DNA of 40,960 nt from a virus (taxonomy: Duplodnaviria; Heunggongvirae; Uroviricota; Caudoviricetes): the IMG/VR virus record IMGVR_UViG_2534681674_000028, positions 1-40,960 of that record; one strand, given 5' to 3'. Within the stretch, counting starts at the first letter, position 1; each line of letters starts with the position of its first letter. The position numbers were made by a program. Below, one piece after another: positions 36,001 through 39,000 of the stretch.

Positions 36001-39000
36001 CCGAACTTCCCTGAACTACAGTAGTGTTCCATGCCTCGGTCGCAATCAGAATTTATGATTCCCCCTCCAGGGAACAAGATGGACATATCACTGCTCCTTA
36101 AAGGCATCCTTCACTCCATCGTATTAACATGTTTATTACTTCACACTCTAATAACAAATATCCCCTATACATGACAACAAAAACCGGAGCCGGACTCCGG
36201 TTTTGTGAAGCTGTCGGGTTCCGGTGCAATACGAAAATACGCCTCCGGCTCTGCAGAGATATTCACACAAGGGATATACCGCTCCCCCTCCGGCGTTCTC
36301 ACCACGAAGCCGCACGACTCCGCAGGCGCACACCGCCGGGCATGCGCCAGAATCGCTGATTCAGTCTGTGTCATAAACCGGGATTTACTGCGAAAGTTTA
36401 TTAATGGAAAGGAAACCGCCAAAATTAGCCACCATGCCGCGCATCTCACACCCGCGCATGCACTTGCTGCATCTGTCCTTACGGATATCGGTGGTGGGTT
36501 TATCGAACTCATCCGCCACAGCCCCGCCCGTGTAACCACACTCATCAGAGCGGTAGGTCCACATACAGGTATTCGCCAGCATAATGCGACCGGGAAACAG
36601 CGCTCCGTCCGTCTCCGTCGGTGTTGCCAGCACAAACGAGGCTGTCATGGCCGTCAGCTCTGACATCTGCTCCACCACCCAGCGGTCGCTCAGCTCCTGC
36701 TCCGGGTCCGCTTCCGGATTGCCCGCCACAAAATTCACCGCATCCAGAAAACGGGCATACACCCGGCGGCGGACCACCGTGGCCCCCACCAGGCTCTGCA
36801 GGTCCTCCGCCATCCCGGTGACCAGACCAAACAGATTGGACACCGTCAGCGACGGTCTGGCACTGCTGCCCTTCCCGTTCATCTCAAAACCGCTGCCGTC
36901 AATCGGGTATACCTGATATTGCCGCCCCTGCCAGGTGACCGCCTCCCCTTTTTCATTCAGCTCATTACAGAAAAAATACCGCTCACCGCCCTGCACCGTC
37001 AGGTCAATTTCCCAGAGCACCACCCGCGGTGACTGCTCTGATTTAACCGACTCGTTCAGGCTTTCTTCATGAATATTCTGCATCAGTTCACCACCTGCTC
37101 AATCGTACAGCTGAAATCACTGTACCGGGCGTTATCCGTGACGCTCCACTCCCGGCACACCACCCTCACCGTCCGGTTATGTTTCGGCGGTCGCCACAAA
37201 AAGGCACGGTAACCACCATGCCAGGATAAAAATTCATCCAGCCAGCGCCGGGTTGACTCATCCGTCACCCGGAACACCGCCTGAAACGTCTTCAGTTGAG
37301 GATTCAGCCCTGTGGGGCGGCGCTGTTCATAACCGTCACCACACCGCACCCTCACCACCGACGGCTTCTCACTCACCTGCATCCCTTCACGCGGGACCAG
37401 ATGCAGCGTTTTTATCTCAGCCACTCAGCATTCCTCCGTCACGTCGCATGGACAGCATCACCGCCTGCACCCGCTGGTCAATCAGCTGCACAAGACTGCC
37501 TGCCGCCTCCGGCCCTAACCGTCCCGGACTTCGCCGCGATCAGCTCTGTGGTGGCCTTTCCCACGCCTGCGGCCATATTGCCAAAGTACCGGGCCACCCC
37601 GACGGCAACCAGCGCCCCCGCGGCTGTTGCCACATTATCAATATTACCGGCAACACCGTTCAGCACGCCGGAGAGCGTTTTCGTCGCTCCGCTGGCTTCA
37701 TTCGCGCCACCCACCCAGGCCATAAAGGCGTTTTCCACCTTTGTGATCCCGTCAGAGACCGTTTCCGGCATGGCGGCATATTCATCACGCAATACCCCCA
37801 GCTGGCTGATTAACGCAGGAACGACTTTATCCGCCGTCAGTTTGCCGTCGTCCGCCATCGCCTTAAGGTCTTTACGGGCCACGCCCATAAAATCCTCGCC
37901 ATATAGCTTGTCACCAGAGGAAAGAAAATGTCACCGAAAAACCGGACCCGCAGAACAACAACCCGCAACATCCGATTTCCAAACCAGATGATTGAACAAA
38001 TTAACATCGCTCTTGACCAGAAAGGTTCAGGTAATTTTTCAGCGTGGGTTATTGAAGCCTGCAGAAGAAGATTAATTAATGAAAAATATTCTCAATTTGT
38101 ACCCAACAAAGACAAACACGACCAGAGCACCTGTTCAGACAGGTTTACTTAAACGACTTATATATGACACAAAAAGCGACCACTAAAGTCGCTTTTTCTT
38201 ATGGTAACAGGCAATAACTCTCTCAGATATTTTTTAGCATTTTTTTGACCGCGCGTTTCCGGACGTATTCTGTTCTCCTGTCCCTTTATATCGTCGGAAT
38301 ACCCGCCGCTCTTCAAATCCCATTCCCAACTCAGAATGTAGTCTGTTGACCGCTTGTTTTATTTCGGTCAGGTTCACCGGTGAAACCGGAGTCCGGCGCG
38401 CCTTACGCAAACACTCTGCTCGTTTCTGTGCCGCCACTTTTCTTTTCTGGTCATCACTTAGCTGTACCATCACTTTTGCCCATCGTTCAGCTGCTCTCCG
38501 GTACAGTCCTTTTTTCTCCAGACATTCTGCCACGTGATCATGTAGCATAAGTGACCTCCGATTATCTACAGACTGCCATCCTGAATTTACCTTCCCTTAA
38601 TGAAATAACAATAAAAAACAAACCACGCAAAAACAATAAAATAACACACAAAAAACTAAATAATAAACAAAAATAATCACCTTATTTATATTTTTTTGAG
38701 GGGGCAATTACTGAACAAAAAACGCTGACTATATACTCAAAACCAAACAACTATTCTGCCAATCAGGTATCATGGCAACACACGGAATTACCGTGTTTTT
38801 GCCTTCTCTGCCCATACAATACGGGCATATACTTCATACTCTATTGTAATATTTCTATCCATGCGCCCCACTCCATTTACCTGTAAATAATATTCAAAAT
38901 ATTTATCACAGAAATCGTTTTTGGCCATGAACTGAGCACACTATAAAGTCCGGAACTGACTCTTTGTTAAATTACCTTAACGTTACCGTAAGCGTACAGC

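Follow-up and report, generated by a model that had tools for sequence, protein, structure and literature searches.

The group-1 genes pchA, pchB and pchC are needed for full ler expression and adherence (PMC6265319, citing Iyoda and Watanabe 2004). The LEE1 promoter region is bound by PchA, which lowers H-NS/StpA occupancy, and its activation is wholly dependent on silencing by H-NS/StpA/Hha/YdgT; LEE1, a part of the LEE (locus of enterocyte effacement), is activated at its promoter by PerC and by Pch alike, and LEE expression in enteropathogenic Escherichia coli (EPEC) is unaffected without perC, whereas the pch genes are essential in enterohaemorrhagic E. coli (EHEC) (PMC4764244). The pchA mRNA carries an inhibitory leader structure, which is opened by the small RNA (sRNA) DicF, leading to the activation of translation (PMC7873438, PMC9438474). 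Here we describe a pch gene and the adjoining ylcI gene in a 40,960-nt stretch of caudovirus DNA (IMG/VR record IMGVR_UViG_2534681674_000028, positions 1 to 40,960; hereafter the window). The locus is very probably the moron slot of a heavily deleted, effector-carrying lambdoid prophage, holding a group-1 pch gene that encodes a protein identical to PchA, with ylcI as phage backbone, a reading carried by the gene identities, junctions and distribution given below.

An earlier note on this DNA had proposed a PerC-like gene of 104 aa convergent to a gene of 74 aa, and both open reading frames (ORFs) lie where it placed them (Table 1). The 104-aa protein matches Pfam PerC (PF06069) at 149.3 bits against a cut-off of 22.6 (E 3.8e-44), residues 1-89 aligning with positions 1-89 of the 90-position profile. 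It also matches phrog_994 (E 1.4e-45). The profile similarity is significant, and the PerC-like assignment holds. Alignment to PerC/Pch proteins gives a full-domain match and 100% identity to PchA (ECs_1091) of O157:H7 Sakai, which by near-identity places the protein in group 1 (PchA/B/C). The same sequence is WP_001303878.1 of O157:H7 FRIK944, is labelled 'PchABC family transcriptional regulator' in UniRef, and occurs on at least 1000 contigs. The gene is preceded by a strong Shine-Dalgarno sequence, GGAGG, and its product contains the N-terminal motif AExLExxGLYRRAAxRW, the conserved core of the PerC/Pch family, in which a 45-member alignment shows R17, A19 and W23 to be invariant and L10, E11, G14, R18, A20, R22 and, outside the motif, C46 to be nearly so. 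On its sequence, the gene is an already-known allele identical to pchA, more than merely PerC-like. The genes pchA, pchB and pchC are already established as master activators of the LEE, and the finding is real but already known.

An exhaustive search of 1.84 billion representative proteins with Pch returned 82 clusters at E<=0.001, showing that the family is small; a word-indexed homologue search returned 16 close relatives. In a tblastn search of 50,697 phage records, Pch found one match only, a 1.6-kb fragment, so that no complete phage genome in that set yielded it, and Pch is otherwise known from prophages only. The founder of PF06069, PerC of EPEC, shares the Pfam family and the N-terminal motif with the 104-aa protein; however, its gene is borne on the pEAF plasmid, unlike the prophage-borne pch.

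The nearest characterised locus is that of pchA in Sakai prophage Sp4 (L005 17131-18680), which is 98.8% identical in DNA to window 38071-38991, a span that takes in the 3′ end of ylcI, an intergenic hairpin, pch and ~440 bp upstream. Both copies adjoin lysis genes and both have the insertion sequence (IS) ISEc8 nearby. They differ in the following respects. First, the window pch sits beside an intact ylcI in a degraded prophage that carries nleA, nleH1-2 and nleF, whereas the ylcI beside Sakai pchA is cut by IS629 at the equivalent of window 38071, leaving only its last 82 nt. Second, ISEc8 stands at −439 relative to pch in the window, whereas it is 3.7 kb off in Sp4. Third, the pchA-lysis segment of Sp4 is inverted relative to the terminase genes. 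Rearrangement by IS elements near pch thus recurs in the window and in Sp4.

Gene order in related prophages shows how the locus is built. Intact EHEC prophages run Rz, pch (minus strand), ylcI (plus), HNH (minus) and terminase, with one variant lacking HNH; the O157 nleA prophage has no pch and runs Rz, ylcI, HNH. In Qin of K-12 the order is rzpQ, cspI/gnsB/ydfO, ynfO and nohA, with ynfO divergent from nohA, and in lambda it is Rz, bor, p78, p79, an unannotated ylcI homologue and cos. Gene order in these four settings indicates that ylcI is backbone at the cos-proximal edge of the slot, and that pch is a variable insert, one of several accessory genes of this interval, which in Qin are cspI, gnsB and ydfO. 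The bor moron of lambda fills the same Rz-to-ylcI interval as pch; however, its protein is unrelated, and, unlike pch, which runs in the same direction as the late genes, bor lies on the strand opposite to them. As read from these arrangements, ylcI is always oriented away from cos. Its terminase-proximal position holds in the intact relatives, whereas in the window the terminase side is deleted and a tape-measure fragment stands in its place. The window locus is accordingly very probably a lambdoid moron slot, the stretch from the lysis gene Rz to the cos/terminase end, with ylcI present as a marker of the slot edge rather than as a working partner of pch.

The 74-aa protein belongs to the YlcI/YnfO family. 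It matches Pfam DUF3950 at 70.6 bits (cut-off 25) and NCBIfam YlcI_YnfO_N (NF041551) at 35.7 bits (cut-off 30), is identical to WP_000074669.1, and its ORF follows a strong Shine-Dalgarno sequence, AGAGGAAAG. Residues 1 to ~50 form a core that is near-invariant among homologues, whereas the C-terminal tails are unrelated; that of the window protein is variable, predicted to be disordered, and specific to pch-linked copies. Over the first 50 codons, the window gene differs from lambda or K-12 ynfO by 15 synonymous and 3 non-synonymous codons, so ylcI is a real gene under purifying selection. Of 5426 complete E. coli genomes, 4172 carry the conserved 5′ part of ylcI and 673 the full ylcI-pch module; the 5′ part also occurs in 151 phage records, lambda among them. 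In lambda, the homologue is an unannotated 64-aa ORF on the minus strand (L007 195-389, ~48108-48302), about 200 bp from the right cos end. YlcI of DLP12, YnfO of Qin and this lambda ORF share the position and orientation of the window gene, divergent from terminase/cos and facing the moron slot; however, their tails are unrelated to that of the window protein beyond residue ~50. DNA similarity to ylcI copies without pch ends near window 38062-38070. The pch module therefore has its mosaic edge within the 3′ end of ylcI, which accounts for the module-specific tail. No functional study of YlcI/YnfO was found in the papers searched.

The flanks of the pair were described in the earlier note as a collapsed tape-measure gene and an IS66 element, and they are indeed a tape-measure fragment on the left and the IS66-family element ISEc8 on the right. 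Window 37880-38991 is 99.2% identical to an intact O157 prophage, up to a junction at which the window has lost HNH and terminase, the head genes, the proximal tail genes and the first ~208 codons of the tape-measure gene. The short imperfect microhomology at this junction pairs CACGCCCAT, inside the tape-measure gene and present at the window junction, with CACGGCCAT, the HNH start in the intact prophage. On the tape-measure side, window 36219-37524 is 96.9% identical to the relative L003 at 27036-28341 (its tape-measure coding sequence being 28234-31476), and window 37571-37889, corresponding to tape-measure residues ~209-315, matches L003 30532-30850. About 2.2 kb is gone between these tape-measure pieces relative to the 1080-aa gene of the O157 nleA prophage. 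The resulting chimeric 136-aa ORF matches PHROG tape-measure families at E 8.7e-56 (profile positions 199-321 of 1123) and Pfam TMP_3 at E 9e-15; it starts at an ATG that stands where the HNH endonuclease gene had its start codon, and beyond the internal deletion it is no longer in frame. The tape-measure fragment is fused in frame to the ribosome-binding site of the lost HNH gene and would be translatable if transcribed. Of the tail genes, M (37083-37424) and L (36385-37083) are complete; only a truncated K remains, and the distal ones have been lost. This arrangement very probably arose through a microhomology-mediated deletion that fused the HNH start codon to an internal part of the tape-measure gene, and a further deletion within that gene.

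On the right, window 38988-39050 is 100% identical to the annotated end of ISEc8 in Sakai, and ORFs for the 512-aa transposase and TnpB are present. In the near-identical relative OkiPb01713 (L001), a 2442-bp ISEc8 is flanked by an 8-bp duplication, ACGTTACC, indicating a simple insertion, and a separate deletion of ~0.75 kb slightly beyond the IS took Rz together with some of the lysozyme gene. As the window stops within the IS, the target duplication and the Rz-side deletion are probable there by extension from OkiPb01713. A third event was very probably the transposition of ISEc8 to a site 439 bp upstream of pch. The arrangement tape-measure, ylcI, pch, ISEc8 occurs in only 2 of the 5426 genomes.

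The upstream region of pch, which contains the leader and the presumed promoter, is kept whole as far as the IS and is 98.8% identical to its Sakai counterpart. Within it lies a conserved 46-aa ORF, found as an exact sequence on 373 contigs and nearly invariant across five pch modules; the Sakai RefSeq record carries no annotation of it. A T-tailed hairpin on the plus strand (38780-38796) overlaps the stop codon of this ORF. No known RNA family turned up when 37700-39100 was scanned against Rfam at E up to 1. By analogy with published work on the identical protein, the product of the window copy would switch on ler and, via Ler, the type III secretion genes of the LEE and prophage-borne effectors, and translation of its mRNA would be kept low by the leader structure until DicF opens it. 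The neighbouring prophage has, 18 kb from pch, a copy of DicF (20635-20686, plus strand; 75 bits in Rfam), so that pchA and its published translational activator are both present in the window. The in-silico duplex of this DicF with the pch leader has an energy of −38.1 kcal/mol, which was equalled by 9 of 300 shuffled leaders and was not used as evidence. That the window pch is expressed is inferred.

Besides pch, the surrounding remnant keeps nleA, nleH1-2, nleF and a fragment of espO. The kept upstream region and the surviving effector genes suggest that pch has been retained by selection. Several observations weigh against the overall reading of the locus given at the outset. ISEc8 now stands between pch and the phage late promoter, with the IS genes pointing towards pch; a generic promoter scan of the pch region gave a weak match only, at background frequency; there is no LEE within the window; and ylcI has lost its native upstream DNA, replaced by tape-measure sequence, and may be silent. 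EHEC genomes usually hold several pch copies, and the window copy may be redundant.

Alternatively, pch and ylcI could be neutral passengers, missed by chance by the deletions and the IS, redundant and unselected in this lineage. The rearrangement is recent, since so few complete genomes have the junction; L and M are intact as well, though useless without the remaining tail; and 7 places in the closest relative match a query with the module. However, the protein is identical to functional PchA, the full 439-bp upstream region is kept at the identity given above, and effector genes of the same virulence programme are intact in the remnant, which is no proof of selection. We regard chance survival as possible but rather unlikely. 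The earlier note's view that regulatory cargo had been kept while structural genes decayed is supported, with refinements: pch and the effectors do survive; ylcI is phage backbone rather than such cargo, and the tail genes L and M survive too.

A second alternative is that YlcI and Pch form a functional pair, YlcI being a ribbon-helix-helix (RHH)-like repressor or controller of pch, or the two an antitoxin-type module, with a shared terminator serving the coupling. The two genes do converge, with stop codons 81 nt apart, upon a perfect 10-nt repeat, AAAAAGCGAC (38171-38180) and GTCGCTTTTT (38188-38197), with a 7-nt loop. The hairpin has a GCGAC core and AAAAA/TTTTT flanks, so that either strand reads a hairpin and then a T run, and its fold is better than that of shuffled controls, at a z-score of −3.2 for one strand and −2.6 for the other. 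A generic consensus terminator scan did not report this hairpin, an omission probably explained by pairing between the A/T flanks, which would consume the T tract. The hairpin is invariant in five independent pch modules, and there is therefore no variation by which covariation could show. The bidirectional terminator of the earlier note is thus kept as a candidate, with the repeat and T runs in its favour and the scan against it. However, a YlcI-Pch pairing is largely refuted by distribution, as most E. coli genomes, K-12 and lambda have ylcI without pch. Coupling is also unlikely because the adjoining ylcI of the characterised Sakai pchA is destroyed by IS629. Searches with PADLOC defence and toxin-antitoxin models returned nothing meaningful for either the 74-aa or the 104-aa protein, and RHH membership of YlcI is unsupported in profile searches. 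A functional pair is therefore highly improbable.

The RHH-like label itself, which the earlier note had given to the 74-aa gene, deserves separate comment. In the monomer model of YlcI, a basic, extended N-terminus leads into two helices, 19-32 and 34-56, and the predicted order of basic extended N-terminus, helix, G-rich turn and helix would match that of the Arc/Mnt-type RHH repressors of phage P22. In hhalign of the YlcI family against Arc and Mnt (both sequences verified beforehand against PDB entries 1arq and 1mnt), NIRFP of YlcI is placed on NLRWP of the Arc RHH β-strand, at P 0.08, which is not significant. BLASTP of YlcI against Arc returned nothing, no RHH family came up for any of 35 YlcI homologues in a Pfam scan at E up to 10, phmmer and family-profile searches of PDB sequences with YlcI gave nothing relevant, and Foldseek with the YlcI model gave nothing; a PHROG HicB-like match at E 0.009 is the sole profile hint. 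By eye the sequence resembles an RHH protein, but no search gave a significant RHH match, and RHH status is no more than a plausible lead. That YlcI/YnfO is an Arc-like RHH DNA-binding protein which, from a fixed place beside cos, controls moron-slot genes (bor, cspI, pch), or late-transcript termination or packaging, appears improbable.

The idea that either ORF, or both, arose by chance in the DNA of a decayed prophage draws on the many overlapping spurious ORFs of this G+C-rich remnant, but has next to no probability, being refuted by strong family matches of both proteins, their exact sequences on hundreds to thousands of contigs, the synonymous excess in ylcI and canonical ribosome-binding sites on both genes.

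Table 1. Features of the pch-ylcI locus and other parts of the window (window coordinates)
Feature	Position	Strand	Basis or remark
pch, group 1	38234-38548	minus	104 aa; product = PchA (ECs_1091), O157:H7 Sakai
ylcI/ynfO-family gene (DUF3950), 74 aa	37928-38152	plus	Pfam and NCBIfam profiles
Inverted repeat, candidate bidirectional intrinsic terminator	38171-38197	none	fold z-scores, sequence
Native pch upstream region (leader and presumed promoter)	38549-38987	minus	439 bp, 29-39% G+C
Conserved 46-aa ORF within pch upstream region	38788-38928	minus	phrog_2157, E 2.3e-37
ISEc8 (IS66 family)	38988-40960, past window end	minus	terminal repeat GTAAGCG at 38988
Deletion junction	37880-37888	none	short imperfect microhomology, CACGCCCAT vs CACGGCCAT
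Chimeric 136-aa ORF, tape-measure residues ~209-315	37478-37888	minus	PHROG, Pfam
Tape-measure 3′ end, last ~36 codons	37417-37524	minus	overlaps start of tail gene M
180-aa ORF, between nleA and tail remnants	35456-35998	minus	phrog_6585, E 1e-91
sRNA AgvB (anti-GcvB)	4063-4124	plus	92.5 bits; neighbouring prophage
sRNA STnc100	4125-4333	minus	175.6 bits; neighbouring prophage

The window as a whole seems to hold two tandem lambdoid prophages at ompW (1-25400 and 25254-40960). The first is fairly complete and ends in exo-xis-int (~23100-25210), after which come a partial copy of ompW and the degraded effector prophage. Coverage of 80% or more of window 20000-40960 was reached by no complete genome in the collection. 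IS3-family copies with ALIL pseudoknots occur three times (10758-10875, 26992-27108 and 30905-31021), and besides AgvB and STnc100 the first prophage has a weak tRNA-like match at 4453-4512. The 180-aa ORF near the tail remnants matched no Pfam or NCBIfam family, is annotated as 'hypothetical' in ~115 genomes, and as a partial pseudogene in the closest relative; its C-terminal half resembles a LuxR/GerE-type helix-turn-helix by eye only, making it a possible second regulator in the remnant.

The locus is one more case in which a virulence regulator and effector genes have outlived the morphogenetic genes of the prophage that carries them; to this the present analysis adds the exact junctions, namely a microhomology deletion and an ISEc8 insertion with target-site duplication, the latter as seen in OkiPb01713. 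If YlcI/YnfO were indeed a DNA-binding controller of the moron-slot genes, EHEC virulence regulation via pch would gain an unrecognised phage-encoded layer acting in trans.
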